DNA from: a virus
Lineage: Duplodnaviria; Caudoviricetes
Reading direction: 5' to 3' (one strand)
Length of the DNA stretch: 64,000 nucleotides
Virus record (IMG/VR): IMGVR_UViG_3300006145_000004
Location: 1 to 64,000 of that record
Part shown: in pieces, positions 14,901-49,035 of the stretch
Position numbering within the stretch: position 1 is the first letter of the stretch
Layout: each line of letters opens with the position of its first letter
The notes under the pieces: model-generated
The model's input: the letters and a program-made list of their open reading frames with translations, nothing else
Database searches by the model: none
What the model was told of the DNA's origin: nothing
Translations under genes and position numbers: made by a program

Positions 14901-14958
14901 AGAAGGGGATAAGGAGGCTTTTATATAAAGTAAATCATGAATTTCCTCCTAATTTTAT
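14901..14958 (+). promoter_or_regulatory. Twin-palindrome leader, copy 1
   Basis: AGGAGG...TATATA-7-TCATGA...CCTCCT-8-ATG. Confidence 0.7.
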
Positions 14959-15651
14959 ATGAATTTATATAATGATGATTGTTTTAAAGTAATGAAAATG
15001 TTAATCAACCAGAAATTAAAAGTGGATGCAATAATTTGCGATCCTCCATATATAATCAATTATACTGATTGGGATAAAGAGTTTGATATGCCTATGGTAG
15101 TAGACTTATCATATGAATTATTAAAAGATAATGGAAATTTAATATTATTTCAAGGATGGTCTAATGTTGCTAAAACAAAAGAGTTATTAGATAAAAAGTT
15201 TAATATTCAAAATTGGATAGTATGGGATCGTATTAAAGGACGTGGTGCAAAGAAAAATTTTGTATCAACAAGAGAAGATATTTTATGGTATTGTAAAGGT
15301 AATAATCCTACATATAATAAAATTTATTCTAATATACCTAAGAAAACTGGAGGAATGGGAAAGAAAAATGGGCAAGAATGTAGAGCATTAACTAATGTAT
15401 GGTATGATATTTCACCAATTGTTCCATGGAGTCCCGAAAGAAATGGTCATCCAACTCAAAAGCCATTACAGTTAATGGAAAGATGTATAACTATCTGGAC
15501 TAATGAAGGAGATATGATTTTAGATTTTACTATGGGGAGTGGAACAACTGGTGTTGCTGCATTAAAGCTTAGTAGAAACTTTATAGGAATTGAAAATGAT
15601 AAAGAATGGTTTGATATTTCTAAAAAGAGAATGGAAAGCTTATTTTATTGA
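14959..15651 (+). CDS. DNA N6A/N4C methyltransferase (beta class)
   Basis: DPPY near N-terminus, HPTQKP, LDFTMGSGTTG. Confidence 0.92.
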   Translation: MNLYNDDCFKVMKMLINQKLKVDAIICDPPYIINYTDWDKEFDMPMVVDLSYELLKDNGNLILFQGWSNVAKTKELLDKKFNIQNWIVWDRIKGRGAKKNFVSTREDILWYCKGNNPTYNKIYSNIPKKTGGMGKKNGQECRALTNVWYDISPIVPWSPERNGHPTQKPLQLMERCITIWTNEGDMILDFTMGSGTTGVAALKLSRNFIGIENDKEWFDISKKRMESLFY

Positions 15652-15753
15652 AGTATGAAATTGCAATATAAGATAGATAAATAAAAGATTTAACTGATTC
15701 AATAGTAAAGAATCAAAGGCTTGAATTAAAAAATTTAAAAGGGGAAAAACTAG

Positions 15754-16197
15754 ATGAAATTTAAAGGGGATATTATTATTACAGATCCTTGCTACATAAT
15801 TAGAGCAGCACATCATGGAACAAAACCAATTACGAAAGATGATTGGAAAGCGTGTAATTATGGAAAAAATATGGACGTGTTAGGCATCTATAATTATATT
15901 TGTAGAAGTACAATATATGGCGATTGGTCATGTACAACATATAATTCTGATACAAATGAGAAAATTGGAGAATTTTGTGCTGATGCTGGATTAGTAGGAG
16001 TATTTGAGTTAAATGAGGTTTTAAAGTATAATCCAGATTTTAATTATCATATCTGTAGGCCATGGACAACAACTTGGATCAAAAATTTTGATGGAGAAGT
16101 AAACATTAAAGTTGTTAATGATGAATATGGAGAATCAGAAGTACAAGTAATCGGTAAAGGAAATATTAATTTTCTGGGCAGACAAACAGATTTTTGA
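15754..16197 (+). CDS. Hypothetical phage protein
   Basis: 147 aa; ITDPCY, FCADAGLVGVF. Confidence 0.6.
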   Translation: MKFKGDIIITDPCYIIRAAHHGTKPITKDDWKACNYGKNMDVLGIYNYICRSTIYGDWSCTTYNSDTNEKIGEFCADAGLVGVFELNEVLKYNPDFNYHICRPWTTTWIKNFDGEVNIKVVNDEYGESEVQVIGKGNINFLGRQTDF

Positions 16198-16281
16198 AAA
16201 AATGAATAAAACTTCTATTTTATTGGGCAGATTGTGATTTGAAAATATGGAATATAAAAGGGCTATATTTAGCCCTAATGT

Positions 16282-16500
16282 TTAGGAAGTTTTTCGCTTA
16301 CCTTTTACTGTTTTGAATTTAGCTTTCTCCATTTCTTTGAAAGTATGTTTAACAGCTAACTTAGCAGCATCAGATGCAGTTTTTTCCATAAAAGCATCCC
16401 AACCTCCATTTTCAGAGATATAGTGAAGTTGAGCAGCGGTTCCAGATAATGTTTTTCCACTATCAGATAATACTTTAAGAGAACATTTCTTTTTACCCAT
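16282..16500 (-). CDS. Small hypothetical protein
   Basis: GGAGGT RBS. Confidence 0.5.
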   Translation of the reverse strand: MGKKKCSLKVLSDSGKTLSGTAAQLHYISENGGWDAFMEKTASDAAKLAVKHTFKEMEKAKFKTVKGKRKTS

Positions 16501-16617
16501 ATGAGTTTACCTCCATTATTGAAATCAAAATACCTGAGTATTATTAATTATAATTCAAATGCGTAACAAAGTAAAGTCAAAAATAGTTTATAAAAATTTT
16601 AGAAAGGAAAATTTAAA

Positions 16618-17775
16618 ATGGTAGAAAGAGCATTAGCACATATTGAGAAAATTGAATGGGTAAAATCGATTGAAGGGGCAGACAATATTGAACTTATTGG
16701 AGTTTTAGGATGGGTTTGTATTGCCAAGAAAGAAGAATTTAAGCCAGGGGATTTGGCTGTGTATATTGAAATTGATAGCAAGTGTCCTGAATCTGATGAG
16801 AGATTTGCTTTTCTTGCAACAAAGCATTATAAAGTGAAAACTATGAAACTGAGTAAATTTAAGGTTATCAGTCAAGGACTTGTACTTCCGATTTCATTAT
16901 TCCCTGAACTGAGTAATAAATCTGTTGGAGCTGATGTAACTGAAAATCTTAAAATTACTTATTCCTGTGAAGAAGATATTAAGAGAAAATTTAATAATAT
17001 AGATCCTGATGAAAAATATAAGTCTATGGCTCAGAGATACAAGAAACTATTTAGTATACCTCTTATGCGAAAGATTATGAAATATAAAATTGGCAAAAAA
17101 GTTATGTTTTTGCTTTTTGGTAAGAAGAAGGATAATCCAAGAGAGTTTCCTAAATGGATTGTTAAGACAAACGAAACACGAATTGAGAATGTGCCATTTT
17201 ATCTTAAAAATACAGATAAATGGATTAAGACAGAGAAATTGGATGGTACGAGTTGTACATTCGCTATAGATAAAATCAAGAAGAATAAATTTGAATTTAT
17301 TGTTTGTAGCAGAAATATGAGACAGGCTGACAGAAATCAGAAAACTTATCATGAGTCAAATATCTACTGGGAATTAGCAAACAAGTATGATATTGAAATA
17401 ATTTTGACTAAGTTTGCTACAGAGAATGGATATAACAGAGTTATTTTACAGGGAGAGGGAGTCGGATTAGTTCAAGGGAATCCATATAAAATGAAAGAGA
17501 ATGAATTATTTATATTCAATCTGATTGTTGATGGTGTTCGTCTTGGAACTGTAGATATGGCTCAATTCTGTGCCCAGAATAGATTGAAGCATGTACCAAT
17601 TATTGATACAGAATATGTGTTGCCTAAGACTATGGAAGAAATGAAGCTGGAAGCTGATGGATATAGTGAGATCAATCCAAAGGTAAAAAGAGAAGGATTT
17701 GTATACCGAAGCGTTGACGGACAACAGAGTTTCAAGAATGTATCAAGAGAGTATTTGCTAAATCATAATGGATAG
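16618..17775 (+). CDS. RNA ligase, DRB0094/Rnl2-like
   Basis: N-terminal IEGADNIE...YIEIDS; motif I TEKLDGTS; REGFVYR, SFKNVS. Confidence 0.85.
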   Translation: MVERALAHIEKIEWVKSIEGADNIELIGVLGWVCIAKKEEFKPGDLAVYIEIDSKCPESDERFAFLATKHYKVKTMKLSKFKVISQGLVLPISLFPELSNKSVGADVTENLKITYSCEEDIKRKFNNIDPDEKYKSMAQRYKKLFSIPLMRKIMKYKIGKKVMFLLFGKKKDNPREFPKWIVKTNETRIENVPFYLKNTDKWIKTEKLDGTSCTFAIDKIKKNKFEFIVCSRNMRQADRNQKTYHESNIYWELANKYDIEIILTKFATENGYNRVILQGEGVGLVQGNPYKMKENELFIFNLIVDGVRLGTVDMAQFCAQNRLKHVPIIDTEYVLPKTMEEMKLEADGYSEINPKVKREGFVYRSVDGQQSFKNVSREYLLNHNG

Positions 17776-17891
17776 AGGGCAATAAAATCAAGATTTTAAC
17801 TGTATTTTTGAGGTCAATATAGTAGACCTTATTAAATTTTACAGCTTATTGTTATAATTATTCTATAACATTTATAATAATTAGAAAGAGG

Positions 17892-18656
17892 ATGATATAT
17901 ATTAAAGAAGTTCTAAACAGAATAATACTTTTGTTTAGTGCCATTATAATATGGGAATTGTGCTCAAGAAATGTTAATCCATTATTTATTCCTGAGCCTA
18001 AAATAGTATTTAATAGTTTAGTTGAATTGATAAAAAGTGGACAGTTGTTTATTGCAATTATGTATTCCTTTTTGAGAATTTCCATAGCCACATTTTTGTC
18101 AGGAATAGTTGCATTTCTTATAGGCTTATTGGCGTATAATTCAAAAATTGCAAACAATATTATAAGTCCAATAATTAGTATCATGAGATATATACCCATC
18201 ACTGCCTTTTATCCATTATTGATTATGTGGTTTGGCATTGATGAATTTATGAAAATTGTATTTTTATTTATTGCAACTTTTGTCTATATGATGCCGTCTG
18301 TAATTTTGTGTTTAGAAGAAATCAACTTAGATTTAATAGATACAGGACTTACAATAGGGATGAATAGGTTTCAGATAATTACAAAAATACAGATACCAGC
18401 TATTACTCCAAGTTTAATGAACAGCTTTATTATGATGTATGGAATTGGTTGGACTTATATTGCAGTTGCAGAAACAATAAATGCAAAATATGGACTTGGA
18501 TTTATTATTCAACAGTCATCTTCTAGGGGAAGAACAGACTTAGTATTCATGGCAATTATAGTAATTATGATTATAAGTGTATTATTTGATAATCTAACCA
18601 AGAAAATAGTAAAAAGAGTCTTTAGATGGAGGTATCTGAATGATAGTACTGAATAA
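17892..18656 (+). CDS. ABC transporter permease (SsuC/TauC-like)
   Basis: multiple TM segments, RYIPITAFYPLLIMWFGI, AETINAKYGLG. Confidence 0.9.
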   Translation: MIYIKEVLNRIILLFSAIIIWELCSRNVNPLFIPEPKIVFNSLVELIKSGQLFIAIMYSFLRISIATFLSGIVAFLIGLLAYNSKIANNIISPIISIMRYIPITAFYPLLIMWFGIDEFMKIVFLFIATFVYMMPSVILCLEEINLDLIDTGLTIGMNRFQIITKIQIPAITPSLMNSFIMMYGIGWTYIAVAETINAKYGLGFIIQQSSSRGRTDLVFMAIIVIMIISVLFDNLTKKIVKRVFRWRYLNDSTE

Positions 18657-19263
18657 TCTATATACTGGATACTCCAGAAATTCACCATTATTAACAGAAT
18701 TTAATTATCGATTTGATAATAAAATTTATGGAATCTTAGGTGAATCTGGTTGTGGTAAAACTACTCTTTTGAGAACAATCGCTGGATTAACTAAACCATT
18801 ATACGGAGAAGTAATTATTAATGGGATAAAGAATAATAGAACAGGTAAAAATGGAATTTATATGTTACATCAAAATTATACTTCTTTCGATTGGTTAACA
18901 TGCTTAGATAATGTGCTTATTGCTAAGAAAGTAAAAGGAAAGGTTACACAAGAAGATATACAAAATGCTTTTAAAATGCTAGAGGCAGTAAAACTTATTG
19001 AACATGTACATAAATATCCAAGACAATTATCTGGAGGTATGAGACAAAGATTAGCACTAGCAAGAACATTATTTGTACAACCACATATTATTTTAATGGA
19101 CGAGCCATTATCTGCATTAGATGGAGATACTAGAGCAGATATGCAAAAGCTTATTTTTAATTTACATAATAAGATTAAAAATACAATTATCATGGTTACT
19201 CATAGCAGAGATGAAGCGGCAAAACTCTGTGATGTAGTGATAAATCTAAATAACTTTAAATAA
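18640..19263 (+). CDS. ABC transporter ATPase
   Basis: GESGCGKTT, LSGGMRQR, LMDEP, VTH. Confidence 0.95.
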   Translation: MIVLNNLYTGYSRNSPLLTEFNYRFDNKIYGILGESGCGKTTLLRTIAGLTKPLYGEVIINGIKNNRTGKNGIYMLHQNYTSFDWLTCLDNVLIAKKVKGKVTQEDIQNAFKMLEAVKLIEHVHKYPRQLSGGMRQRLALARTLFVQPHIILMDEPLSALDGDTRADMQKLIFNLHNKIKNTIIMVTHSRDEAAKLCDVVINLNNFK

Positions 19264-19281
19264 AAAGGAGGGACAGAATAC

Positions 19282-22335: not shown

Positions 22336-22436
22336 AAGATTATGCTTTGTGTGGTGTCATAGCCACACAGGGTATTTCAAGACTATTTATAACCTGTAAA
22401 TTAGTTAATAAATAATCTATTTTAATATAAAAATAC

Positions 22437-22492
22437 AGAAAGGAAAAGGGTGTTGCAACCGTAAGATGATCATGCCTTTCTGGTAAAAATAT
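22437..22492 (+). promoter_or_regulatory. Twin-palindrome leader, copy 2
   Basis: AGAAAGG...TTGCAA-8-TGATCA...CCTTTCT...TTG. Confidence 0.7.
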
Positions 22493-23206
22493 TTGCAGTA
22501 TTTTGGAGGAAAATCAAAAGTATCAAGACAGATTGTAGATTATTTAGAATCTGTTAGAAAAGAAAATCAATTATATGTAGAACCATTTGTGGGAGGTGGA
22601 ATAATTTGTTCTAAAATGAGTGGTAATAGAAAAGCATATGATTTCAATGAATATTTGATTGAAATGTACAAAGCTGTACAAAAGGGTTATGAATTACCAA
22701 GTTGTATTAGTGAGCAAGAGTATAAATACATAAAAGCTCATAAAGATGAAAATAAAGCATTAACTGGATTTGTAGGGTTTGGATGCAGTTTTGCAGGTAA
22801 ATGGTTTGGTGGATATGCAAGAGATGGCAGAAAGAAATATGATTTTGCTTATACAGCAAAATTAGGATTACTAAAGAAAATGTCAACAATGATGGATGTT
22901 GACTTTGAGTATGCGAATTACAAAGATTTATCCTTTGAAGATTGTATTATTTATTGTGATCCACCTTATAATGGTAAAACACAGGCATATGGTACAGGAA
23001 ACTTTAATACAGAAGAATTTTGGAAAGTTATGCGTTTATGGTCAAAAAATAATGATGTTTATATTTCGGAATACGTAGCTCCAGATGACTTTAAATGTGT
23101 TCTTGAAATACCTACAAGAATTGATATTAGAAATAGAAATAATAAAATGGAAAAAAGAGTAGAAAAACTCTTTGCTTATAAGAGGGCATTGTATAAAAAA
23201 TTTTGA
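22493..23206 (+). CDS. D12-class (Dam-like) adenine methyltransferase
   Basis: YFGGKS, EPFVGGG, YCDPPY. Confidence 0.9.
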   Translation: MQYFGGKSKVSRQIVDYLESVRKENQLYVEPFVGGGIICSKMSGNRKAYDFNEYLIEMYKAVQKGYELPSCISEQEYKYIKAHKDENKALTGFVGFGCSFAGKWFGGYARDGRKKYDFAYTAKLGLLKKMSTMMDVDFEYANYKDLSFEDCIIYCDPPYNGKTQAYGTGNFNTEEFWKVMRLWSKNNDVYISEYVAPDDFKCVLEIPTRIDIRNRNNKMEKRVEKLFAYKRALYKKF

Positions 23207-23209
23207 AAT

Positions 23210-23250
23210 ACGGCTACTGCCCCCCTAACTTTAGACAATCGGTAGTTCAC
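23210..23250 (+). mobile_element. IS200/IS605-like right-end remnant
   Basis: CGGCTACTGCCCCCCTAACTTTAGACAATCGGTAGTTCAC. Confidence 0.45.
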
Positions 23251-23332
23251 AACTTTGTTTTAATTGATGTAATAGAACTAAATATAACAATTAAGCATAT
23301 GCAGAAATGAAATAATTCAAAATAAAAAATAC

Positions 23333-23388
23333 TAGGAGGAAATGAGGTTTGTGCGCACAAGAAATCATGATTTACTCCTAAGCAAAGA
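23333..23388 (+). promoter_or_regulatory. Twin-palindrome leader, copy 3
   Basis: TAGGAG...TTGTGCGCACAA-G-AAATCATGATTT-A-CTCCTA...TTG. Confidence 0.75.
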
Positions 23389-24225
23389 TTGAAAGAAAAA
23401 TATGTAAAAAGTTCACTTAACTATATTGGTGGTAAATATAAATTGCTTCCACAGATTTTGCCATTATTTCCAAATCATATAAGTGTATTTATAGACTTAT
23501 TTGGTGGGGGATTTAATGTTGGTGCAAATGTAAATGCAGAACATATAGTATATAACGATATATGTGAGCCAGTAGCAAAGTTATTAAACCATATAAAAGG
23601 TAGTGATATTGAGAAGTTATTATCTGAAATTGATGGGTATATAGAACAATATCAATTATCAAAAGAAAATAACGAAGGGTATTTACAGCTTAGAGAAAAT
23701 TATAATAAAGGGCTTAAAACACCAATGAAATTTTATACATTATTATGTTATGCATTTAATAATCAAATCAGATTTAATAAAAATGGGGAATATAATATGC
23801 CTTTTGGAAAGAATAGAAGTAGTTTTAACCCATCTTTAAGAAAAAAATTTATTGATTTTTATAAAAAAGTTAATGATATAGATTGTATATTTTTAAATAT
23901 TTCTTTCGATAAATTTGACTTTTCAGATTTAGATAATAATGATTTTGTGTATTGTGATCCTCCATATTATAATAGTATAGCTTCATATAATGAACAAGGT
24001 GGATGGACTGAAATCCATGAAAAAAAATTATTGTCTATATTAGATTTACTTAATGATAAAGGAATTAAATTTGCCTTGAGTAATAATTTAAAATACGATA
24101 ATCCACTTTTGGAAAAATGGAAAAATAAATATGATGTTCACTATTTGATTGGTAATTATAGTAATTGTAATTATCAAAAGAAAGACAAAAGTAAAGATGT
24201 AGAAGTATTAATTACAAATTATTAG
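23389..24225 (+). CDS. D12-class (Dam-like) adenine methyltransferase
   Basis: NYIGGKYKLL, DLFGGG, RFNKNGEYNMPFG, YCDPPY. Confidence 0.92.
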   Translation: MKEKYVKSSLNYIGGKYKLLPQILPLFPNHISVFIDLFGGGFNVGANVNAEHIVYNDICEPVAKLLNHIKGSDIEKLLSEIDGYIEQYQLSKENNEGYLQLRENYNKGLKTPMKFYTLLCYAFNNQIRFNKNGEYNMPFGKNRSSFNPSLRKKFIDFYKKVNDIDCIFLNISFDKFDFSDLDNNDFVYCDPPYYNSIASYNEQGGWTEIHEKKLLSILDLLNDKGIKFALSNNLKYDNPLLEKWKNKYDVHYLIGNYSNCNYQKKDKSKDVEVLITNY

Positions 24226-24289
24226 TTGCAAATTCATTTTAAAGTAAAAACTACAGCCTCTTATATATTATAAAAGGCTATGCAAAAAG

Positions 24290-24529
24290 TTATTCATTTA
24301 GGTGGTGGTTACATATAGTACAATAATCAACTCCAAATTCTGCATCGCACCATTTGCCATCGTGTTCACAATATACTCGAAGAAAGTCACCTTTTTCATA
24401 AGATTTTTCTTCATTAACACTAGAAGGGTTTACCCAACATTTTCTTGCAAATGGACAATTAGACAGGTCGTCCCAATCTGTAAGAACAGGAAAATTGAAA
24501 ATAGGGTTATTTCCATTCATAAACAACAA
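24290..24529 (-). CDS. Cys-rich small protein
   Basis: AAGGAGG RBS, several Cys. Confidence 0.5.
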   Translation of the reverse strand: MLFMNGNNPIFNFPVLTDWDDLSNCPFARKCWVNPSSVNEEKSYEKGDFLRVYCEHDGKWCDAEFGVDYCTICNHHLNE

Positions 24530-24604
24530 CCTCCTTAAAACTATAATACTATAATTATAATAACTATAAAAATGAATTGCAATGAGTTTAGTAAAGAAGT
24601 GTCA

Positions 24605-24745
24605 ATGATATACACAAGTTACTTCGTAAAGTTAAAAGAGTTAGAAAGACCTAATATTATCCCAATATCAATTTGCAGTAAAGTACCAGATTGGTATAAA
24701 GGATTACAGTACAAGAGGCTAGATCCGAAATATGAATTAATGTAG
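24605..24745 (+). pseudogene. Truncated DUF488-like gene
   Basis: MIYTSYF...PISICSKVPDWYKGLQYKRLDPK then stop. Confidence 0.45.
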
Positions 24746-24800
24746 AAAGGATAAATTAGTAGCTAGCTTTAAAGGTTGCAACCGCTTTAGGTACTAATTA
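24744..24800 (+). promoter_or_regulatory. Twin-palindrome leader, copy 4
   Basis: AGAAAGG-ATA-AATTAGTA-GCTAGC-8-TTGCAA...TACTAATT-A-TTG. Confidence 0.65.
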
Positions 24801-25614
24801 TTGAAAAACAATACTATATTACCTCCATGTTCATATCAGGGAGGTAAACAAAGAGTTTCAAAAGAAATTGTTGACTATATTTTAAGTACTACAACATTTA
24901 ATGATAGCACAAAATTTTTCGATTTATGTAGTGATTCAGGTGCTATTAGCCTTGAACTAATGAACAGAGGTATTAAGCCAGAAAATATTATTATAGATGA
25001 TTGGAGATGGTAGCTTTTTATATAAAAAGTTTTTAACATATGCAGATATAGTTCCAAGAGATAAAACAAAAATACAAAAATATATTAAAGAATTATCAAA
25101 AGAAAATGCAGATATAGATGAGTGTTATAAATATATTTTATTACAAGCAGCATCATTTGGTGGTAAACAAATTTGGAAGGAAAATAACGAATGGAAAAAT
25201 ACGTCATTTAGAAATTATTGGCAACCAACAGCTACAAGTAAAAGGAGAAGTCCTGTTAATCCAATGCAACCTATGATAGATATTTTATGTAAAAGAATAA
25301 AAGTTATTTCTGAAAAGTGTATTGGAATTCAGTGTATTTATGATGACATTTGGACTATATTGCAAATTATACCAACGGAAAATTGTATTATATACATAGA
25401 TCCACCATATTATAATAGTACAAAATATGGTTTTAATTTTAACTTGAATGATTTTTTAGGTGAATTATTTCAAAAAACATTAAGTCCTATATTTGTATCT
25501 GAAAAGGAAAAAATTTCGGAGGAGGCAATTAAACTAAATTTTAATGGAGATAAAGGAGGAATTAGCAGAAATAAGAAATGTAAAAATGAAGAATGGTTAA
25601 ATATATATCGATAG
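24801..25614 (+). pseudogene. Frameshifted D12-like adenine methyltransferase
   Basis: YQGGKQR and DLCSDSG in one frame, YIDPPY in another; break near 25000. Confidence 0.75.
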
Positions 25615-25710
25615 GAATTTATTTTATTAACTTTTAAAGTTAGATAATCAAATATTTAGTATAATGTTAGGAGTATGTTCTACGATAATATTATGATGAA
25701 AAATAAAATA

Positions 25711-25765
25711 TAGGAGGTAAAGAGGTTTGTCATGACAGAAAAGTGCACTTTACTTCTGAATTATA
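25711..25765 (+). promoter_or_regulatory. Twin-palindrome leader, copy 5
   Basis: TAGGAGG...TGTCATGACA-GA-AAAGTGCACTTT-ACTTCT...TTG. Confidence 0.75.
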
Positions 25766-26941
25766 TTGAAAATAGCAATTATAGATGCAGATTTAATAAG
25801 TAGGAGTAATCATAGATTCCCAAACTTAGTTTGTATGAAATTGTCAGGTTATTATAAAGAACTTGGTGCTAAAGTGGAACTGAAAATAGACTATAAAGAC
25901 TTACTAGGATATGACAAAGTATTTATTTCTAAAATATTTACTGATACACCAATAGATGAGAAAATTTTGGAATTTCCAAATGTAGAATATGGGGGTACAG
26001 GATTCTTTTATGATAAAGCTCCAAAGCTTCTTGATGAAGTAGAGCATCATATGCCAGATTATCATTTATATGATAAGTGGGTAAATGAAAAATTAAAAGA
26101 GGGTCATAAAAGGAAAGATTTTTCTTATTATCTTGATTGGTCAATAGGTTTTCTTTCAAGGGGTTGTATTAGACAATGTAGTTTCTGTGTAAATAAAAAT
26201 TACAAATCGTGTGAAGTACATAGTAATTTATCAGAATTTCTTGATAATGATAGACCTTATATATGCTTACTTGATGACAATGTATTAGCATGTAAAGATT
26301 GGAGAAGTATATTTGAGGAACTCATTGCAACTGGTAAGAAATTTCAGTTTAAACAAGGTTGTGATGAGAGACTTTTGACAGATGAAAAATGTGAAATACT
26401 GTTTAATAAGTCAAAATGGATTGGTGATAGAATATTTGCATTTGATAATATTAAAGATAGAGAGATAATAGAGAAAAAGCTTCATATGATAAGGAAATAT
26501 ACTAATAATCAAATTAAATTCTATACATTTTGTGGTTATAATCATGACAACATAGGAGTTTATGATGAGGAGTTCTGGGTAAAAGATATAGAAGATTTAT
26601 TTGAACGAATTAAGATTCTAATGACCTACGGGTGTCTACCATATGTAATGAGATTTAAAGATTATGTTCTAAGTCCATATAAAGGAATTTATATCAATGC
26701 TGCAAGTTGGTGTAATCAGCCCAGTTTATTCCGTAAAATGAGTTTTGCTGAATATAGTATGGCAAGGGGTATGAGTAATAAAAATTATAAGAAGTATAAA
26801 ATGGATTTTGATTCATACCTAGCAGATGGTAATAAAAAAGGTTCATCGTGGAGATATTATGAAAAGTTTTTGAGTAAATATCCTGAGATAGCAGAGAAGT
26901 ATTTTCATATGAAGTGGAATTATTCCAATAGGAACAGTTAA
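25766..26941 (+). CDS. Radical SAM enzyme
   Basis: SRGCIRQCSFC; N-terminal IAIIDAD...FPNL..MKLSGYYK; LLDDN. Confidence 0.8.
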   Translation: MKIAIIDADLISRSNHRFPNLVCMKLSGYYKELGAKVELKIDYKDLLGYDKVFISKIFTDTPIDEKILEFPNVEYGGTGFFYDKAPKLLDEVEHHMPDYHLYDKWVNEKLKEGHKRKDFSYYLDWSIGFLSRGCIRQCSFCVNKNYKSCEVHSNLSEFLDNDRPYICLLDDNVLACKDWRSIFEELIATGKKFQFKQGCDERLLTDEKCEILFNKSKWIGDRIFAFDNIKDREIIEKKLHMIRKYTNNQIKFYTFCGYNHDNIGVYDEEFWVKDIEDLFERIKILMTYGCLPYVMRFKDYVLSPYKGIYINAASWCNQPSLFRKMSFAEYSMARGMSNKNYKKYKMDFDSYLADGNKKGSSWRYYEKFLSKYPEIAEKYFHMKWNYSNRNS

Positions 26942-27132
26942 GAGGTACATAAAATTTTGGAGATTAAAAAGTATTATATATTGGAAATTGAAAACGATTT
27001 TGGAAGAATTTTTGTTAGAGAAAGCGACTTAAAGAATTATCCAATGATTGCAGTATAATAAATTCAGAATTGATATTTTAGAGAGGAAAATAAAGCGTAG
27101 ATATTTAATTGAAATACCTACTTTTACTGATA

Positions 27133-27702
27133 ATGAATAACAAAAAATATAATATTATTTATGCAGATCCTCCTTGGGATTATGGTAATACAAAAAATCT
27201 AAATGGAAAATTTTGGGGGATAGCAGACAAACATTATGATGTTATGAAGTTTAAAGACATTTGTAGTTTACCAATACAAAATATTGCAGCTAATGATTGC
27301 TATTTGTTTCTTTGGGTCACATCACCTTTTCTTGAAAAAGCTTTTGAAGTGATTAAATCTTGGGGATTTAAGTATGCAACTGTAGGATTTGTATGGATAA
27401 AAATGTTAAATGATATGTCTGCTATAAGAGAAGATGGATTAGGTAAATATACTATTTCTAATGCAGAATATTGTTTAATAGCTAGAAATGGTAAGTATTG
27501 GAGAGAGGCAAGAAATGTAAAACAAGTTATACAATATCCAAAGACAATACATAGTGCTAAACCTCCTGAAATCAGAGATAGAATCGTTTCATTATGTGGA
27601 GGTTTACCTAGAGTAGAGCTATTTGCTAGAGATATATGTAAAGGGTGGGATAGTATTGGTAATAAAATTGATGGTAATGATATCAGAAATATTATTAAAT
27701 AA
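27133..27702 (+). CDS. MT-A70-family adenine methyltransferase
   Basis: YADPPW, LFLWVT, WGFKY, HSAKP, ELFAR. Confidence 0.9.
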   Translation: MNNKKYNIIYADPPWDYGNTKNLNGKFWGIADKHYDVMKFKDICSLPIQNIAANDCYLFLWVTSPFLEKAFEVIKSWGFKYATVGFVWIKMLNDMSAIREDGLGKYTISNAEYCLIARNGKYWREARNVKQVIQYPKTIHSAKPPEIRDRIVSLCGGLPRVELFARDICKGWDSIGNKIDGNDIRNIIK

Positions 27703-27743: not shown

Positions 27744-27787
27744 AAGAGCGATGGTAGCCTTAAAGATTAATCGCTCTTAGTAGTTTA
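27744..27787 (+). promoter_or_regulatory. Twin-palindrome leader, degenerate copy 6
   Basis: AAGAGCGAT-GGTAGC-7-ATTAAT-CGCTCTT...ATG. Confidence 0.5.
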
Positions 27788-28095
27788 ATGCACGAACCAG
27801 TAATTAAATAGAGTGAAAGTAAACTGAGTCAAGCAGAAAGTATTTTAAAATGTTTTCCTAAAGAAATAGATACATACTATGAATCGTTTTGTGGAGTGCT
27901 TCAGTTCTCAGAAGATTGTTAGATAGCGATATAAAAGTAAATCATTATATATGTAGTAACTTAAATAGTAATCTAATTGATTTATGGAATGAATTTATTA
28001 ATTGCCCCCACTCAGTTTATGTTTATTATAAAAGACTTTGGAATTGGTTAAGAAATTTGTGTTGTCCTTTGATGGCATTAGTGATGAAAAAATAA
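27788..28095 (+). pseudogene. Dam-like methyltransferase remnant
   Basis: MHEPVIK*SESK...FPKEIDTYYESFCG, then frameshift and truncation. Confidence 0.7.
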
Positions 28096-28277
28096 TACAT
28101 AGAATGTACCAAAGAACATTTATTCAAGGCATGAGCATTTATTAAATAGTAATAGTAATTTTAAAACAAATATTGGTAAATTAAAAGCTAGTATTGTCTA
28201 TGAAAGTATATATATAACATAGTTTAAAATCATTAGATTTATAATGGAAAAAATAAGTTTGCAAACAAAAATAAATT

Positions 28278-28562
28278 ATGAAAGGTAAGGATATGGAAAA
28301 TGATTTAGTTACTAAAGGTTCCGTTTTGAAACTGATTGAAGATATCAAACAGAATCCAGAGATACCAAAAAACTATGGAACCCTTTTAGATATCATGAGA
28401 GTAATCGGAAAAATGCCGACTGCTTATGATGTGGATAAAGTTATAGAAACTTTTGAAACATATAAATCCCAGCAATTTCAAAATGAGATGTTAAGTGATA
28501 ATGAAAAATGGTTAGTTCAGAGAGTAATTGATGAATGTACGAACATTGTGAAACCAAAATGA
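28278..28562 (+). CDS. Hypothetical phage protein
   Basis: MPTAYDVDKVIE segment. Confidence 0.55.
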   Translation: MKGKDMENDLVTKGSVLKLIEDIKQNPEIPKNYGTLLDIMRVIGKMPTAYDVDKVIETFETYKSQQFQNEMLSDNEKWLVQRVIDECTNIVKPK

Positions 28563-29200
28563 GTAAAGGAAAACTTTATAGAAAAAGGATTAGATTTTAA
28601 TATTAAATGTAAAAAACTATATTTGGAAGAGGAATTACTTGATTATAATGACATAACACCATTTTTGTATGCAAAAATAATATAGAATATATTAACAGAT
28701 CAAGTATTATCACATATTAAAAAATTCATGACACATTTTTATTAAAATAATTATTTAATATGTTATTAGAACGAGTAAATTTTAATGAAAATGTTTTAAA
28801 TAGAATTACTTTCATTTTGAATAATGATAAATTAGGGGCTATTTTCTGAAAATTACTTTAATGGAATTGAGATAGTCAAAACATTATACAGGAATTTAAA
28901 GAGGTGAGTTAGTGAATATACAAATAAGTAATAACAATAATTGTAGGAATTATAATAAAACAAATGTATGTAAATATCAAGAGAATGTTATTAAAGAAAT
29001 AGAAAAGATTATTAGTGATGTAGATAAATTGGAATTACCTTTATTAGTAAATATTAACTGTACAGAATATTCTGGCAAAGGGTTGAGCGTAATTAGATAG
29101 TTGGCTTATAACTATAGAGAGTAATGGAATAAAGAATAATTAAGTAAACAAAATCTAAATAAAAATCATAGAAAATTTCCACAATTACAATTTAACCGTT

Positions 29201-34643: not shown

Positions 34644-34648
34644 ATGAG

Positions 34649-43367: not shown

Positions 43368-43437
43368 AACGGATACAGTAATGAAATGGGACCCTTATCA
43401 ATAAGTTATAGTTACAAATATTTTAAATTTAAAGGTT

Positions 43438-44273: not shown

Positions 44274-44427
44274 TACTTAAATCAATTCTTTTATTTGAGG
44301 AAAAATTAAGATGTATAATATTGTAATTACAAAATGTATGAAAATAAAGCATTAAAGAAGATATTAGAAATAGAGAATTTATATAAAAATGCTTCAACTA
44401 TTCTATAAAATAATTGAAGCACTATAA

Positions 44428-45207
44428 TTAAGGCGCTAACTGTTGAAATATATTATTAAATGTATCCAGTGAAGTATCAAGAATATCAGTTGTATTTGTT
44501 ACTTCAATAGTTATGAAATCTTCTGGTTTATGAGCTTCATATACACCAGCACTATTTTCAATAGAAGCATATATAGTCCAAGTACCACATTCTCCATAAA
44601 AATGATATAAATTATTTTCATCATCATTAGGAGTATATATCTTTCCAGAAGGAGATTTACCATAGATTTGAATATTAGTAATATCCTTATCATATGGAGT
44701 AACATAAACAAAGGCATAGGAATCTATAGATAGTTAGTGAACTGATATTGTATACCCAATAGGAGGTGATTTAACGATAATATTACATTCCGCAATTTCA
44801 GTACTGTTGTTTTTAGAAGCTTGAGCAATAATAGTTGCGTTTCCATCAGCTAATGCAGTAACTGTTCCATTTTGATCAACAGTAGCAACAGAATTATTAC
44901 TTGAACTCCAAAGTACATTACTATTTGTGGAATTATTAGAATACAATACTGTTGCAATTAAAGTATGTGTATCATTAATATGCATATTTAATATTTCTTC
45001 ACTAAGAGTTACTTTAGTTATTATAATAGATTTTTGTTTGTATATATAGAAACATACTACTAAAGTACAACATATACATGCAAAGGCTAGGATACATATA
45101 TTACAAAAAGTTTTATTTTTAAATTTATCAAGTAATTTTTTAATATCAATGCTGATACCAAATATAGAAAAAATATTTGCTATAATACCTATTATTGTTT
45201 CTATCAA
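44428..45207 (-). pseudogene. Membrane-anchored Ig-like (Big_2) protein with in-frame TAA at 44734-44736
   Basis: WSSSNNSVATVDQNGTVTA; frame stays open ~100 codons past the stop. Confidence 0.7.
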
Positions 45208-45280
45208 ATTATCACCACCTATTAAATTTAATTCTAACACATTATCAATAAACTGTAAATGGTTAAAAAGGAGAACATAG

Positions 45281-46576
45281 TTGAAAGAAGTAATTAAATT
45301 ATTTAGACAGATTCAGAAAACAAGTAGTTTAAATGATAAGAAGTTAATTATTATTCAGAATAAAGATAATGGACTATTCAAAAAATGCCTTCGTTTTTTA
45401 CTAGATAAAAATATTGTAACAGGGATTAGTAGTCCCAGACTTAATAGAATCAATAGGGATACACTAAAAGATAAAGCGACACAAAAGCTAAATTCTTTTG
45501 AAAAAGTAATAGATTATCTTGCGTATCATAATACTGGTAGAGATGAGGATATTGCAAATGTAAAAAGTTTTATTTATGACAATTATGATAACAATAATGA
45601 GTTTATATTTTACATTCTGATGATTACAAAAAAATATAGGCTTGGTGTAGATGCAAAATTTGTAAATAAATGTATTCCTGGATTAATTCCTACATGGGAA
45701 GTACAACAGGCATATCCATTATCTGATAAGAATGAACCCAAGGAAGGTGACTGGTTTGCACTATCTCAAAAATTGAATGGTAGCAATAATGGTATTTTAG
45801 ATGGAAAATGTATTAGTAGACAAGGCAAAGAATTTTCTGGATTAACACATATCCTTTCAGATATTAACAAGATATCACTCAAAAATATGTTTTTTAATGG
45901 GGAGCTGATTAGGAAAAATATAGATAATGTTTCAGATACTGAGAACTTTCAGATTGGAACAGGAATTATAAATTCAGATGATACAGATAAATCTTGTATT
46001 AAATTTGTGATTTATGAAATGTTTCCAAGAGAAGAATTCATTAAAGGTGAAAGTAAACTTACATATAAACAAAGAAGAGAAAAATATCTTAATCCATTAT
46101 CAAAAGAGATTTCTAAATTAGGTTTAGAGAATATAGAGGTAGTACCACTTGTATATGAAGGAACTGACAGATCTAAAATTCAAGAGTTTTTAACTAAGGC
46201 TGATTCAAATGGCTGGGAAGGGCTTATGCTCAATAAAGATACTAAATGGAAAAATAAAAGAAATAATGGAATTTTAAAAGTAAAATCTTTTAAACATGCA
46301 GATATTCTTTGTATAGATATTCTTGAAGGAAAAGGAAAGTACAAAGGCACTTTAGGCTTAATTAAATGTAATTATAAAGGATATGAATTAGGTGTTGGTT
46401 CTGGATTTACAGATGAACAAAGACATTATTATTGGAATCATAGACAAGATATCATTGGAAAAATTATTCAGATTAAATATAAAAGTGAAACAAAAAATAA
46501 ACAAGGAGGTATATCAGTACAATTTCCTATTTTTCAGACAGTTAGAAAGGATAAAACAGAACCAAGTTATAACTAA
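45281..46576 (+). CDS. ATP-dependent DNA ligase
   Basis: QKLNG, NGEL, WEGLML, LKVK, GSGFTDEQR, FPIF..VRKDK. Confidence 0.88.
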   Translation: MKEVIKLFRQIQKTSSLNDKKLIIIQNKDNGLFKKCLRFLLDKNIVTGISSPRLNRINRDTLKDKATQKLNSFEKVIDYLAYHNTGRDEDIANVKSFIYDNYDNNNEFIFYILMITKKYRLGVDAKFVNKCIPGLIPTWEVQQAYPLSDKNEPKEGDWFALSQKLNGSNNGILDGKCISRQGKEFSGLTHILSDINKISLKNMFFNGELIRKNIDNVSDTENFQIGTGIINSDDTDKSCIKFVIYEMFPREEFIKGESKLTYKQRREKYLNPLSKEISKLGLENIEVVPLVYEGTDRSKIQEFLTKADSNGWEGLMLNKDTKWKNKRNNGILKVKSFKHADILCIDILEGKGKYKGTLGLIKCNYKGYELGVGSGFTDEQRHYYWNHRQDIIGKIIQIKYKSETKNKQGGISVQFPIFQTVRKDKTEPSYN

Positions 46577-46651
46577 AGGAAAAAATAGAAATAAAAATTT
46601 TATAAAAAATGTTTAATATTTTAGAAAGGAATATTTCAATATATAGAAAAT

Positions 46652-47344
46652 ATGGGAAAGATTACTATTTTAGATGAAACGACAAAATATCCAATTACTT
46701 TAATTGGAAAGAGAGCAGGTATATGTTGGGGATCAGATATTACAGATGATAAGAAAAATTATAAACGTGGAATAAATTGTATTACATCTAATCATGGAAG
46801 AACTCTTGAATATGTAAATGTAGAAATGATTATTGATGGATATTCTGCTAGAGTTATTCGTGAATGGTATACTCATCTTGGTGGTTCACCTACACGCTTA
46901 CAGGCAAGCACAAGATATATAGATTATGAGCATGGCTTTAATTATGTCGTTCCTGAAAGTATTAGAAATAATGAAAAAAGATATGAAATTTATACAGAAG
47001 CAATTCATCAAATTAATAAAGCTCTTGTAAAGTTAGAAGATATTGGGACACCTAGAGAAGATTCAGCATTATTACTTCCATTAGGAATGAGTACTAAAAT
47101 TGTTGATAAAAGGAATCTTCGTAATCTTGTGGACATGTCACATCAACGTATGTGCAGTAGGGCATATCATGAATATAGAAGATTATTTATAGATATTTGT
47201 AGCGAATTATATAAAGTTTCGCAAGAGTGGGAATGGATTGTAGATAATTTGTTTTCACCAGCATGTGGTCAACTGGGGTATTGCCCAGAGAAAAAGTCTT
47301 GTGGGAGAGCTTTGAAAAACTTTTTTAAATACATGGAGGAATAA
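46652..47344 (+). CDS. thyX: Flavin-dependent thymidylate synthase
   Basis: HGRTLEY, QASTRY, REDSALLLP, RMCSRA. Confidence 0.8.
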   Translation: MGKITILDETTKYPITLIGKRAGICWGSDITDDKKNYKRGINCITSNHGRTLEYVNVEMIIDGYSARVIREWYTHLGGSPTRLQASTRYIDYEHGFNYVVPESIRNNEKRYEIYTEAIHQINKALVKLEDIGTPREDSALLLPLGMSTKIVDKRNLRNLVDMSHQRMCSRAYHEYRRLFIDICSELYKVSQEWEWIVDNLFSPACGQLGYCPEKKSCGRALKNFFKYMEE

Positions 47345-47347
47345 ATA

Positions 47348-47893
47348 TTGATCTGTTTAGTGGGTAAAATATGTAGTGGTAAGAATACATTACAAAAACA
47401 ACTTATTAAAATGGGCATGAATTCAGTTGTAAGTTATACAACTAGACCACCAAGGACAGGAGAAGAACAAGATATAGCATATCATTTCATTACAAAAGAG
47501 GATTTCTTTAAAAAAGAACAACAAGGATTTTTTGCTGAAACAACTTCTTATAATGTAGCTACAGGAGATGTATGGTATTACGGAAGTGCAGCAGAAGATT
47601 TAACAGATGATAAAGTAATTATAGTAAATCCAGAAGGATTAAAGAAACTTAAAAAAATTGATTCTTTAAATCCAATTGCATTTTACTTAATGGCAGATGA
47701 AGAAACTATTTGGAATAGATTAAGAAAACGTGGAGATAACTCATGTGAGGCAAGAAGACGTTTAAACGCAGATGATGAAGATTTTGTTGGAATTGATAAA
47801 TATATCGATTATGCTATTAGAAATGACTATGGAACTTCATCAGAGGTACTTGCAGAAATAATTTTAAATATTTATAGAAAAGTTAAGAGGTGA
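47348..47893 (+). CDS. gmk: Guanylate kinase-like
   Basis: GKICSGK, YTTRPPR.GE, YHFI, WYYG. Confidence 0.85.
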   Translation: MICLVGKICSGKNTLQKQLIKMGMNSVVSYTTRPPRTGEEQDIAYHFITKEDFFKKEQQGFFAETTSYNVATGDVWYYGSAAEDLTDDKVIIVNPEGLKKLKKIDSLNPIAFYLMADEETIWNRLRKRGDNSCEARRRLNADDEDFVGIDKYIDYAIRNDYGTSSEVLAEIILNIYRKVKR

Positions 47894-47974
47894 TACTAAT
47901 GTTTAACTTTATATTTGGTCTTTTAACTGGATCAATCATAGGAATATTTATCATATCTCTTTGTCAAGCAAATA

Positions 47975-48442
47975 ATGACAATATTAAAGGAGATGATACA
48001 GATCAATAAAAAATTTTACCTTTGTGGTGGTATGGCTTTATTTGGAAAAGAAAACTTTTCAGAAGGAAATGAATGGCGAGTTGACATAAAGAGTCAGATT
48101 GAAGATATTAGTAATGGAAAAGTAAGCTGTTATAATCCAAATGACCATTTTAATTTTTTAGATAATACTGGATATACAAGTCAGCATGAAATACTGGAAT
48201 ATGATTTATACAGGATACGTAATTCTGATTTAATTGTTGTTAATTTTAATGATCCTAAAAGTATAGGTTCTGCTTGTGAGATAGCTATTGCCTATGATAG
48301 AAGAATTCCAATTATAGCATTGTGTGAACATGGTGAAGAAAATATCCTTCATCCATGGTTAAAAGAATTTTGTAATCGTATTTTTACAAATAGAGAAGAA
48401 CTAATTATCTATATAACTCAACACTATATAAATCAAGATTAA
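47975..48442 (+). CDS. Nucleoside 2-deoxyribosyltransferase-like
   Basis: YLCGGM, YNP, DL..IRNSD, SIGSACEIAIA. Confidence 0.75.
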   Translation: MTILKEMIQINKKFYLCGGMALFGKENFSEGNEWRVDIKSQIEDISNGKVSCYNPNDHFNFLDNTGYTSQHEILEYDLYRIRNSDLIVVNFNDPKSIGSACEIAIAYDRRIPIIALCEHGEENILHPWLKEFCNRIFTNREELIIYITQHYINQD

Positions 48443-48466
48443 AATTAAAAAGGAGATATTAAATCT

Positions 48467-48907
48467 ATGAGAGAGAAGAACTATATTGTAAATCCTGAAA
48501 AAAAGATTGTTGTAGCAATATTAAAAGCTAATACTGATAGTGTAGATGATATGAAAGGTATTGCAGATGAAGTTATTAGGGAGTGTTCAAGAACTACGAT
48601 TTATGCAATACTTGAGTTAATAGAAAAAGCTGGTGATTTTCATATGTCGAATTTAGATATTCCATATGAAGTATTATACAAAGGAATTGCAAAATGTGAT
48701 GAGCATGATGAATTTACTGAAGAAATTGGGAAAAAGATTGCCGGAAATAAAGCAGAAATGAAATATCATATTGCTATGGCAAAAAAATATAAAGTACTTG
48801 TATCGCTTATTGAAAAGGCTTATGAGGAATTATATGTCTTAGAATGTAAACATGCAAATAAGGCTTTAAAAATTAACAACAATATTAAAAAATATACTGA
48901 AAGATAA
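48467..48907 (+). CDS. Hypothetical phage protein
   Basis: GIAKCDEHDEFTEEIGKKIA. Confidence 0.6.
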   Translation: MREKNYIVNPEKKIVVAILKANTDSVDDMKGIADEVIRECSRTTIYAILELIEKAGDFHMSNLDIPYEVLYKGIAKCDEHDEFTEEIGKKIAGNKAEMKYHIAMAKKYKVLVSLIEKAYEELYVLECKHANKALKINNNIKKYTER

Positions 48908-48982
48908 TTGTAATATATGTAAGTATTACTGAAGTAAATACTAAAATCTCATTTTTAACAGTAAAGTAAAAATACATAATGA

Positions 48983-49035
48983 AAGGGGAACAGAACTCTG
49001 GCCAGAGTGATGACATGTCAGTTCTCTCTTAAAAG
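48983..49035 (+). promoter_or_regulatory. Twin-palindrome leader, copy 7
   Basis: AAGGGG...ACTCTGGCCAGAGT-GA-TGACATGTCA-GTTCTCTCTT...ATG. Confidence 0.75.

Follow-up and report, generated by a model that had tools for sequence, protein, structure and literature searches.

In phage T4, genes 25 and 38 carry split ribosome-binding sites, in which an intervening hairpin brings a distant Shine-Dalgarno sequence (SD) and the start codon together. T4-type phages also contain promoter-stem-loop "mobile regulatory cassettes", short, conserved elements that flank variable accessory genes, are found in settings that are otherwise unlike and are believed to promote the shuffling of genes. The D12-methyl motif, reportedly described in a 2017 survey as a candidate cis-regulatory RNA, is said to take its name from its location upstream of D12-class DNA methyltransferase (MTase) genes. 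Other systems depend on pairing between loops. In HIV-1 DIS and MoMuLV SL1-SL2, the loops through which RNA copies pair are self-complementary and vary among strains, always remaining palindromic, and the MoMuLV dimerisation sites are two tandem hairpins (PMC7357161). Guanidine-II (mini-ykkC) is described as two small tandem hairpins by the SD, whose tetraloops pair via a palindromic dinucleotide; functional RNA homodimers are characterised by the same source as rare in nature (PMC7357161). Fremin et al. (2023) listed 8,495 phage candidate structured RNAs from IMG/VR, four of them given as upstream of DNA N-6-adenine-methyltransferase (PMC10690425).

The window studied here, the whole stretch of 64,000 nt analysed from one Caudoviricetes record of IMG/VR, contains seven leaders, w1 to w7 (Table 1), that can be compared with each of these systems. 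Like the retroviral DIS, the leaders keep self-complementarity while their sequence changes. However, DIS belongs to viral genomic RNA, serves packaging and presents loops of 4-9 nt with flanking purines, whereas the leader is self-complementary over a whole 12-mer and lies in phage mRNA, and its dimers are predicted only. The loops of Guanidine-II share a fixed motif, pair mutually and bind a ligand; in contrast, the two cores of the leader differ, vary freely and cannot pair together, and the leader has no Rfam match. The T4 split ribosome-binding site resembles w4 and its relatives L012, L086 and L025, where the insert is flanked immediately by the SD on its 5' side and by the start on its 3' side. 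It differs from the leaders termed type A, whose SD sits inside the closing helix, and its insert is a simple hairpin rather than a junction with two self-complementary elements. The T4-type cassettes combine an early promoter with a terminator-like stem-loop, whereas the leader contains an SD and stands directly before the start codon. The D12-methyl motif shares with w2 and w3 a place upstream of D12-class genes (PF02086), but its model does not match and the leader family also precedes other gene families. As far as their brief descriptions go, the four MTase-linked candidates of Fremin et al. resemble the leaders in genomic position, come from the same collection and may overlap with them.

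All seven leaders reported in the first-pass annotation are present in the sequence, the sixth (w6) being degenerate, with the imperfect first site already ascribed to it. At each of the seven sites there is a closing stem of 5-9 pairs, whose 5' strand is an SD-like purine tract or lies directly 3' of one (7/7) and whose 3' strand stops 1-11 nt upstream of the start codon. Two palindromes with centres 13-14 nt apart lie inside this stem. They had been described as hexamers; the palindromes are indeed there, but their actual length is 8-14 nt at w2, w3, w4, w5 and w7. The absence of an SD at normal spacing from leader-bearing genes, and its presence at neighbouring genes, was borne out. While the layout is common to all seven, they do not form one kind: three are type A, two are type-B-like, and w2 and w7 have no relatives found. 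In predicted folds, the SD-like tract is mostly paired.

Table 1. Leaders w1 to w7 and their downstream genes, with positions in the window.
Feature	Position	Strand	Description	Remark
w1, type A	14902..14952	+	SD-like tract paired with CUCCU-like strand; encloses two self-complementary elements	
w1 gene	14959-15651		N6_N4 DNA MTase	Pfam PF01555
w2	22436..22482	+	8-bp closing stem including SD-like tract; two 8-nt palindromes inside	
w2 gene	22493-23206		D12 MTase (PF02086)	TTG start
w3, type A	23332..23381	+	two perfect 12-nt palindromes	
w3 gene	23389-24225		D12 MTase (PF02086)	TTG start
w4, type B	24745..24799	+	8-bp closing stem; 8-nt and 10-nt palindromes inside	
w4 gene	24801-25013 and 24997-25614		split DNA MTase	phrog_56
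w5, type A	25710..25759	+	10-nt and 12-nt palindromes	
w5 gene	25766-26941		radical SAM domain protein, TTG start	phrog_9298, E 2e-49
w6, degenerate type-B-like copy	27744..27778	+	9-bp closing stem, imperfect first element	
w7	48983..49030	+	closing stem around 14-nt and 10-nt palindromes	
w7 gene	49036-49803		class I SAM MTase	weak match

Individual leaders differ in how well they can be placed. With the covariance model R1, in which the loops were set as unpaired, the seed members w3 and w5 scored 65.5 and 73.5 bits, and w1, absent from the seed, scored 30.3 bits (E 4e-6). The R1 search gave no match to w2 or w7, and the homologues of their genes (n=3 for w2; n=11, at ~45% identity, for w7) have an ordinary SD and no leader; the fold of w2 has a z of -2.63. 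At w4, an SD-like tract lies 3 nt 5' of the closing stem and a TTG start 1 nt 3' of it. At w6, the second palindrome overlaps the closing stem and an intact gene is absent downstream, with stop codons throughout 27788-28600; the Dam pseudogene proposed there found no support from tblastn, Pfam or BLASTP. Contigs from a metatranscriptome run span 23023-23437, across w3, a weak indication given that DNA carry-over is possible.

Searches with R1 located type A relatives in further phages and prophages of Clostridia from gut and rumen. Two sets of 100 sources yielded 15 and 39 elements, respectively; 12 of 49 phage or bacterial records had matches, at 19 places, as did 9 of 151 genomes in a sample drawn without seeding. 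A same-strand ORF of at least 50 aa begins no more than 30 nt downstream of 39 of the 40 distinct matches, and all seven good matches in the unseeded sample likewise have a same-strand ORF start within 30 nt. These homologues keep the palindromic layout, a point set beforehand as a test. The stem pairs covary, the observed score being reached by 0 of 500 shuffles; however, covariation supports the closing helix weakly, because the type A helix barely varies (one pair changed on both sides; 88.7% of cells paired). A conserved purine motif lies where this helix meets the first 12-mer. Type A has no large invariant unpaired pocket, and the paired cores are its variable part.

The self-complementary 12-mers provide the central evidence. 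Thirty-five distinct leaders yielded 29 distinct 12-mers, which share ancestry, so that the pairs counted in them cannot be treated as independent. Over the six pair positions of each 12-mer, there are 160 Watson-Crick pairs, 11 G.U, 0 A.C and 3 of other kinds. At the very centre the pair is Watson-Crick in 26 and G.U in 3, the adjoining pair Watson-Crick in 27 and G.U in 2; the central four bases are thus complementary, in one way or the other, in 29/29, and five G.U pairs fall in the four "loop" positions. Furthermore, in one large clade the variants containing G.T are more common than any other form. When an exact pattern was scanned with the four core bases left free, every core of a true leader was self-complementary, whereas chance matches had random cores. 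As the first-pass annotation had proposed, the sequence varies while self-complementarity stays: type A cores include 11 of the 16 possible self-complementary tetranucleotides, and the first element has 7 core types, the second 12. In 35/35 leaders the two cores are different, and they cannot pair with each other. Each 12-mer amounts to about one helical turn. Perfect palindromes could also be maintained by templated (quasipalindrome) mutation, with no selection acting on the centre. Predicted homodimers of w3, w4, w5 and w7 have a ddG of -15 to -21 kcal/mol, whereas shuffles give about -7 ± 3, and 0 of 100 shuffles were as good for w3 (-16.1) or w7 (-20.7); the predicted dimers of w1, w2 and w6 do not surpass those of shuffles.

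Counts of palindromes do not by themselves single out the leaders. Neither the window nor the 122-kb phage record has more twin palindromes at this spacing than expected by chance. The window contains 54 twin hexamer palindromes at 13/14 nt, where 100 shuffles gave 71.7 ± 9.2; twin 10-mers number 4 in the whole record, against a shuffle mean of 3.44; and long palindromes containing G/C number 27, against 22.4. A stricter statistic, chosen post hoc, gave 3 against 0.47, a value of 3 being reached by 5 of 300 shuffles. Three of the record's four twin 10-mers nevertheless lie directly upstream of MTase or radical SAM starts. With this placement at gene starts, and with relatives that keep the layout, the signal is positional and comparative rather than one of excess.

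The explanation that fits best, which we hold tentatively and from sequence comparison, is that these elements constitute a new translational leader, and that pairing of its 12-mers probably joins one transcript to another. In Clostridia phages and prophages from gut and rumen, the ordinary ribosome-binding site of accessory genes, most of which encode DNA-modification enzymes, would be replaced by a structured portion of the mRNA that is conserved and strand-specific. In type A (w1, w3, w5), an SD-like AGGAG would pair with a CUCCU located at the usual SD place, 6-12 nt before the start. Since the SD-like tract is paired, the ribosome-binding site may be held in a helix and translation throttled or gated. 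In type B (w4 and the decayed w6), the folded insert may instead bring the flanking SD and the start together. Full self-complementarity with G.U, and never A.C, points to pairing in the sense RNA that goes beyond a lone hairpin. Because a hairpin cannot pair its own two central bases, the likeliest partner is the same element on a second transcript, and the 12-mers may join transcripts into an RNA-RNA homodimer or chain, as their conservation suggests. Dimerisation through self-complementary loops was among the possibilities raised at first pass, and its pairing part is the best fit to the complementary centres and to the bias towards G.U. The notion that dimerisation frees the SD, in contrast, is unsupported, the predicted probability of an unpaired SD across 28 leaders being 0.34 in the free monomer and 0.36 with both 12-mers blocked.

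A further step, which we regard as rather unlikely, would make the leader a switch: the 12-mers would pair across transcript copies so that translation, stability or localisation of the mRNA follows transcript concentration. If so, stray prophage transcripts of DNA-modification and other accessory genes would be kept silent, and these genes would be turned on as the numbers of genome copies and transcripts rise. The hypervariable cores would then act as a self-recognition code against cross-pairing between leaders.

Pairing between transcripts has to be weighed first against a monomer. A three-way-junction leader read singly by a protein or RNase, as a translational activator or repressor or as a processing or stabilising site, is an alternative of the same modest, rather unlikely standing as the concentration switch; perfect palindromy would then be a by-product of templated mutation at hairpins in the DNA. 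The DNA-modification genes of phage Mu are under translational control of this protein-recognised kind and offer a precedent. Predicted folds keep the SD sequestered in the closing helix with the 12-mers either free or engaged, the purine motif at the junction of that helix with the first 12-mer is conserved, and the leader is a conserved island between unrelated flanks, as expected of a module recognised by a protein. However, a hairpin does not need the complementarity of the central two bases seen in 29 of 29 12-mers, and the fact that non-Watson-Crick pairs other than the three mismatches are all G.U, even in the "loop", suggests selection on pairing. The cores are also so variable that a sequence-specific protein is unlikely to read them.

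An improbable alternative is that the palindromes act in double-stranded DNA, as sites of an MTase, a restriction enzyme or a dimeric regulator, with the methylation state setting expression. Palindromic cores of 4 bp are of the kind recognised by Type II systems. Every core in the leaders is such a palindrome, most downstream genes are DNA MTases, from four families, and the window shows an approximately twofold depletion of GATC, CTAG and GGCC. Nevertheless, the sense strand has 11 G.T against 0 A.C, though either would break duplex symmetry equally, and the element always lies on the gene strand and includes the SD and its complement. Moreover, leaders that are identical or nearly so stand upstream of an N6_N4 MTase and a C5 MTase in one set (L312/L313) and of a C5 MTase, a sigma factor and a PAPS reductase in another (L311/L314/L315), so the cores do not track the enzyme. 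This sharing and the asymmetry between G.U and A.C both disfavour the methylation sites suggested at first pass.

Slightly less probable again is a reading of the ~50-nt element as mainly a recombination linker or mobile regulatory cassette for swaps of accessory genes, its structure mattering little for expression. Six pairs of loci share 82-100% identity across the leader, against a background level of 46-67% in the 200-nt flanks to either side; a control pair from the same phage shows 100% identity across leader and flanks. The same leader variant precedes unrelated genes in different genomes, and one variant occurs twice in a single genome (L310/L318). To judge from these comparisons, the leader behaves as a portable expression module of ~50 nt, with 92-100% identity between loci that have unrelated flanks, and it stands before unrelated genes. 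A linker, however, has no need of self-complementarity, G.U-tolerant pairing, a fixed distance to the start codon or a helix of SD and anti-SD. A linker role can also coexist with a translational leader that pairs between transcripts.

No leader matches any Rfam 15 family at gathering score, and the description of the element as undescribed therefore stands. The cmscan searches covered the window, 14000-50000, 22400-25800 and 25690-25780; on the last of these, a stretch of 91 nt, no family appeared even at E≤10, the SAM, SAH and other riboswitch classes included. The D12-methyl model (RF02950), which had no positive control here, was absent from all four scans, matched nowhere in the 122-kb record at E≤10 and exceeded its cut-off (gathering score 57 bits) in none of 48 related records. 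The main text of PMC5737381 contains no mention of that motif. A SAM- or SAH-sensing riboswitch, another of the first-pass options, is hardly credible: all identifiable window genes downstream are SAM-dependent and the SD is sequestered as in translational riboswitches, but no riboswitch model matches, the variable parts are paired cores rather than an invariant pocket, and PAPS reductase, sigma-factor, zinc-ribbon and excisionase-like genes also lie downstream.

The claim that leaders precede only SAM enzymes accordingly holds for the window, in 6/6 leaders with an identifiable gene, and fails across the family. Type A leaders precede PAPS_reduct genes (L176, L177, L315), a Sigma70_r2 gene (L314), double zinc ribbon genes (L232, L239) and a Tn916-Xis/HTH_17 gene (L208). 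Conversely, one MTase gene of the window, MT-A70 at 27109, has no leader.

To our knowledge, and after a limited literature search, no RNA homodimer is known to control a bacterial or phage mRNA, and the leader offers a compact, sequence-diverse natural system for the hypothesis of RNA-RNA pairing. Even without dimerisation, it would be an uncatalogued, widespread expression module for phage DNA MTases, a radical SAM enzyme and PAPS-reductase-like genes. The genes under its control shape phage escape from host restriction. The leader also marks boundaries of gene exchange between phages and can aid the annotation of gut phage genomes. Leaders near-identical to w4 precede radical SAM genes in L012 and L086, and leaders homologous to w5 precede the same gene as w5 does in L001, L008, L009, L011, L018, L081, L084, L090 and L093.

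The twin-palindrome leader is a real and conserved element. The layout recognised in the first-pass annotation, with an SD-like tract, two palindromes and a closing strand ahead of the start codon, is present at all seven sites (w1 to w7), although w6 is degenerate. In every one, the two palindromic tracts are enclosed in the predicted fold by a closing helix of 5-9 pairs. These palindromes exceed the hexamers first marked: both are perfect 12-mers in w3 and both 8-mers in w2, and the two measure 8 and 10 nt in w4, 10 and 12 nt in w5, and 14 and 10 nt in w7. The six genes behind intact leaders indeed have no SD at normal spacing, whereas neighbouring genes do, and the identity of the "Dam pseudogene" placed after w6 was not confirmed.

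The virus record totals 122,368 bp, the window being its first 64 kb, with a G+C content of 29% and long ORFs nearly all on the + strand; mouse-gut metagenomes from 11 studies contain near-identical DNA. A run of DNA MTase genes, together with a radical SAM gene and an MT-A70 gene, occupies 14.9-27.7 kb. Since the integrase gene ends just ahead of w1, it is directly followed by the N6_N4 MTase gene with its leader.

Leaders and neighbouring features in the window
Feature	Position	Strand	Remark
tRNA model match (Rfam)	5159-5230	+	41.8 bits (gathering score 29)
Tyrosine integrase gene	13832-14893	+	3' end ~10 nt before leader w1
Leader w1	14902-14952	+	type A; N6_N4 MTase
547-aa phage protein	20599-22242	+	NMT1/THI5-like (periplasmic binding) and OmpA domains; just upstream of MTase island
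Leader w2	22436-22482	+	singleton; D12 MTase
Leader w3	23332-23381	+	type A; D12 MTase
D12 protein	23389-24225		no viral relative found by search with this protein
Leader w4	24745-24799	+	type B; split MTase
Split MTase gene	24801-25614	+	two overlapping ORFs, 24801-25013 and 24997-25614
Leader w5	25710-25759	+	type A; radical SAM protein
MT-A70-family MTase gene	27109-27702	+	after radical SAM gene; without twin-palindrome leader
Leader w6	27744-27778	+	type B, decayed
Leader w7	48983-49030	+	singleton; class I MTase (weak match)

Conservation was examined at 160 loci encoding homologues of the radical SAM protein, drawn from viral contigs and bacterial genomes, the bacterial hosts being for the most part Clostridia MAGs, including many Lachnospiraceae. 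Many of these loci have an ordinary SD, and several have leaders clearly homologous to w5, w3 or w4. These leaders keep their palindromes, with different sequences. Leaders of the w4 and w3 types, which precede MTase genes in the window, stand before the radical SAM gene in other phages (loci L012, L086 and L024). A covariance model of eight aligned leaders (R1), in which each element's four central bases (the core) were set unpaired, matched its seed members w5 and w3 and, in addition, w1 (30.3 bits, E 4e-6); it gave no match to w2, w4, w6 or w7 in the window, the next best being a trivial hairpin at 16 bits. These results and the alignments therefore sort the seven sites three ways: w1, w3 and w5 are type A; w4 and w6, the latter decayed, are type B and share a second consensus with L012, L086, L025, L016, L020 and L058; and w2 and w7 are singletons, whose genes have homologues with ordinary SDs instead of any leader. 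Type B is described from alignments only; MAFFT alignment A6 is structurally inconsistent, its closing strands being shifted three columns between subgroups. The inner stems have clear covariation support; the type A closing helix is weakly supported because it hardly varies. Megablast of 16 kb against named phages gave no match. Among the radical SAM loci, L016, L017 and L020 show a third hairpin with a palindromic loop in the stretch of ~40 nt that separates the type B leader from the start of the radical SAM gene, and the start codon of several homologues is apparently ATT or ATA.

The central bases of the elements carry the argument on function. Both elements were located in 36 of 40 distinct R1 matches, three with an element equal to that of locus L216 and the doubtful L233 being left out, which yielded 35 distinct leaders, with element centres spaced 12-14 nt, and 29 distinct 12-mers. 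Self-complementarity runs through the centre of the 12-mers, with 160 Watson-Crick pairs, 11 G.U, no A.C and 3 others in total.

Pairing within the 29 distinct 12-mers, by position from the centre
Pair	Watson-Crick	G.U	Other
1 (centre)	26	3	0
2	27	2	0
3	28	1	0
4	28	0	1
5	27	2	0
6 (outermost)	24	3	2

The first element shows seven core forms and the second 12, every one self-complementary with G.U allowed; they use 11 of the 16 palindromic tetranucleotides, or 14 once w2, w6 and w7 are included. This property was not built in, because the R1 cores were unpaired and, in an exact-pattern scan of viral contigs that left the first core free, true leaders were all self-complementary there and chance matches were random. 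Tolerance of G.U but not of A.C shows that the pairing is read on the sense strand, and this strand specificity means that it takes effect in RNA or in single-stranded DNA of that strand and not in the DNA duplex.

Moreover, the constraint on the two central bases makes an intramolecular hairpin insufficient as an explanation; the simplest partner for each 12-mer would be a second copy of the same element. The comparative data thus favour the proposal of an mRNA leader that dimerises through self-complementary loops. Precedents for such pairing are the retroviral dimerisation sites and the guanidine-II hairpins, in which, according to passages of PMC7357161, tandem hairpins interact via palindromic bases in their loops. 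Relative to two monomers, the predicted homodimers of w3, w4, w5 and w7 gain 15-21 kcal/mol in stability, against about 7 +/- 3 kcal/mol for shuffles, 0-3 of 100 of which reach as low; those of w1, w2 and w6 are nothing special compared with shuffles.

The leader is portable. Leaders 92-100% identical between loci are embedded in 200-nt flanks that, on both sides, are 46-67% identical, which equals background; such pairs include two copies within one genome, and in one further pair the identity is 82%. Two loci of the same phage, compared as a control, show 100% identity over leader and flanks. Identical leaders precede an N6_N4 MTase gene in one genome and a C5 MTase gene in another, and in three genomes one variant is followed by genes for a C5 MTase, a sigma factor and a PAPS reductase, respectively. 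Hence the target of the neighbouring enzyme is not encoded in the cores. Together with the 11 G.U pairs against no A.C, this disfavours the suggestion that the palindromes are DNA sites sensing methylation. In these comparisons the leader behaves as a movable expression module; it is perhaps also a crossover point for gene exchange.

One set of 100 sources yielded 15 elements with R1 and a second set of 100 yielded 39; on whole records the model matched 19 places in 12 of 49, with 0-2 per bacterial genome of 1.6-6.7 Mb. An unseeded sample, in which no gene was used as seed, comprised 151 Clostridia genomes from the order of the isolate behind locus L093; nine of them held matches. The full layout is present at seven of the nine new places, the two false matches (E 5e-4 to 7e-4) lying inside an aconitase gene and at a place without an ORF. 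Across the 40 distinct matches, 39 are followed within 30 nt by the start of a same-strand ORF of at least 50 aa, the exception being the weakest match. SAM-dependent products encoded behind type A leaders include the radical SAM protein and D12, N6_N4 (one fused to an SNF2 helicase), C5 and phrog_757 MTases. Exclusivity for SAM enzymes, as initially claimed, is too narrow, since type A leaders also precede genes for PAPS-reductase-like proteins (three loci), a sigma-70-type factor, an excisionase-like HTH protein and, in two lineages, a ~205-aa double-zinc-ribbon protein whose gene lies within a replication module. DNA MTases account for five of the seven downstream genes in the unseeded sample. 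The leader is associated with phage accessory genes, chiefly DNA-modification genes, and not with SAM as such. A SAM- or SAH-responsive switch is accordingly disfavoured, given these non-SAM genes and the lack of an Rfam match.

That the leaders are chance palindromes was weighed against simple counts. Twin hexamer palindromes at 13/14 nt number 54 in the window against 71.7 +/- 9.2 expected, twin 10-mers with G.U allowed 4 against 3.44 in the whole record, and G/C-containing palindromes of 10 nt or longer 27 against 22.4; a stricter statistic, chosen post hoc, gives 3 against 0.47. Plain twin-palindrome counts are thus at chance level, and the window taken by itself shows an outcome that the first-pass annotation had named as refuting its proposal. 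The finding is retained because of position and homologues only: of the four twin 10-mers found over 122 kb, three lie no more than 60 nt ahead of the start codon of an MTase or radical SAM gene.

The leader is absent from curated RNA families. No Rfam 15 family matched the leaders in the window at gathering score, nor at E<=10 over 36 kb, 3.4 kb and 91 nt, nor at 16 related loci; snoRNA, miRNA and thermometer model matches (E 0.9-8) were rejected as noise. The D12-methyl motif, RF02950, has no match in the 122-kb record and none over cut-off in 48 related records or the 151 Clostridia genomes; a positive example was looked for in these records and genomes and not found, and the comparison of the leader with RF02950 is one of model scores. 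The literature on D12-methyl and phage MTase riboswitch candidates, taken without the supplements of PMC5737381 and PMC10690425, yielded no description of the motif. The 2023 IMG/VR catalogue (PMC10690425) mentions four candidates, without names, that lie ahead of genes for N6-adenine MTases, and at the level of that description overlap with the leader is possible.

The two main types differ in how they would meet the ribosome. In type A, the AGGAG tract pairs with a CUCCU located 6-12 nt before the start, the usual SD place, and folding predicts it to be mostly paired. In many type A leaders, the 3' arm of the second 12-mer is a further possible partner for the bases 3' of AGGAG, and pairing with it lengthens the closing helix at the cost of pairs in the second element. 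Opening of the SD by dimerisation found no support in folding of 28 leaders: the mean unpaired probability of the SD was 0.36 with both 12-mers blocked, against 0.34 in the free monomer. In type B, the closing helix begins 3 nt after the SD and ends 1-3 nt before the start codon, so the predicted fold would bring SD and start together. T4 genes 25 and 38 have split ribosome-binding sites, to which type B may be likened. Gating of translation by the leader RNA and pairing of 12-mers on different transcripts are both inferences, as would be any biological trigger. An upstream ORF or leader peptide coupled to the gene suits w3 by eye and was dropped because w5 and relatives do not fit. A promoter and terminator scan was uninformative (93 promoter-like sites versus 103 expected), and the RNA-run data, being assembled contigs, are silent on transcript ends, strand and level. 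In a clade of phages of ~58 kb (L216 2440-2497; L197-L268 group), the upstream gene encodes a G39P-like helicase loader and its stop codon falls within the 5' strand of the closing helix, so that terminating ribosomes could open that helix. A TAG directly precedes the SD-like tract in many type A leaders.

Several minor observations concern the surrounding genes. The nearest SD-like tract of the MT-A70 gene is ~19 nt before the listed TTG start, so the true start may differ. In another phage, the D12-type gene behind a type A leader (L179 ~1557-1620) is apparently frameshifted near its start, in a G run; this and the split MTase behind w4 could reflect sequencing errors, decay or phase variation. 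ARAGORN found no tRNA anywhere in the window, and the tRNA-model match is possibly an aberrant or degenerate phage tRNA. Over the whole window, GATC (75 versus ~165 expected), CTAG (59 versus ~112) and GGCC (13 versus ~27) are roughly twofold depleted, and CATG and TGCA are near expectation.
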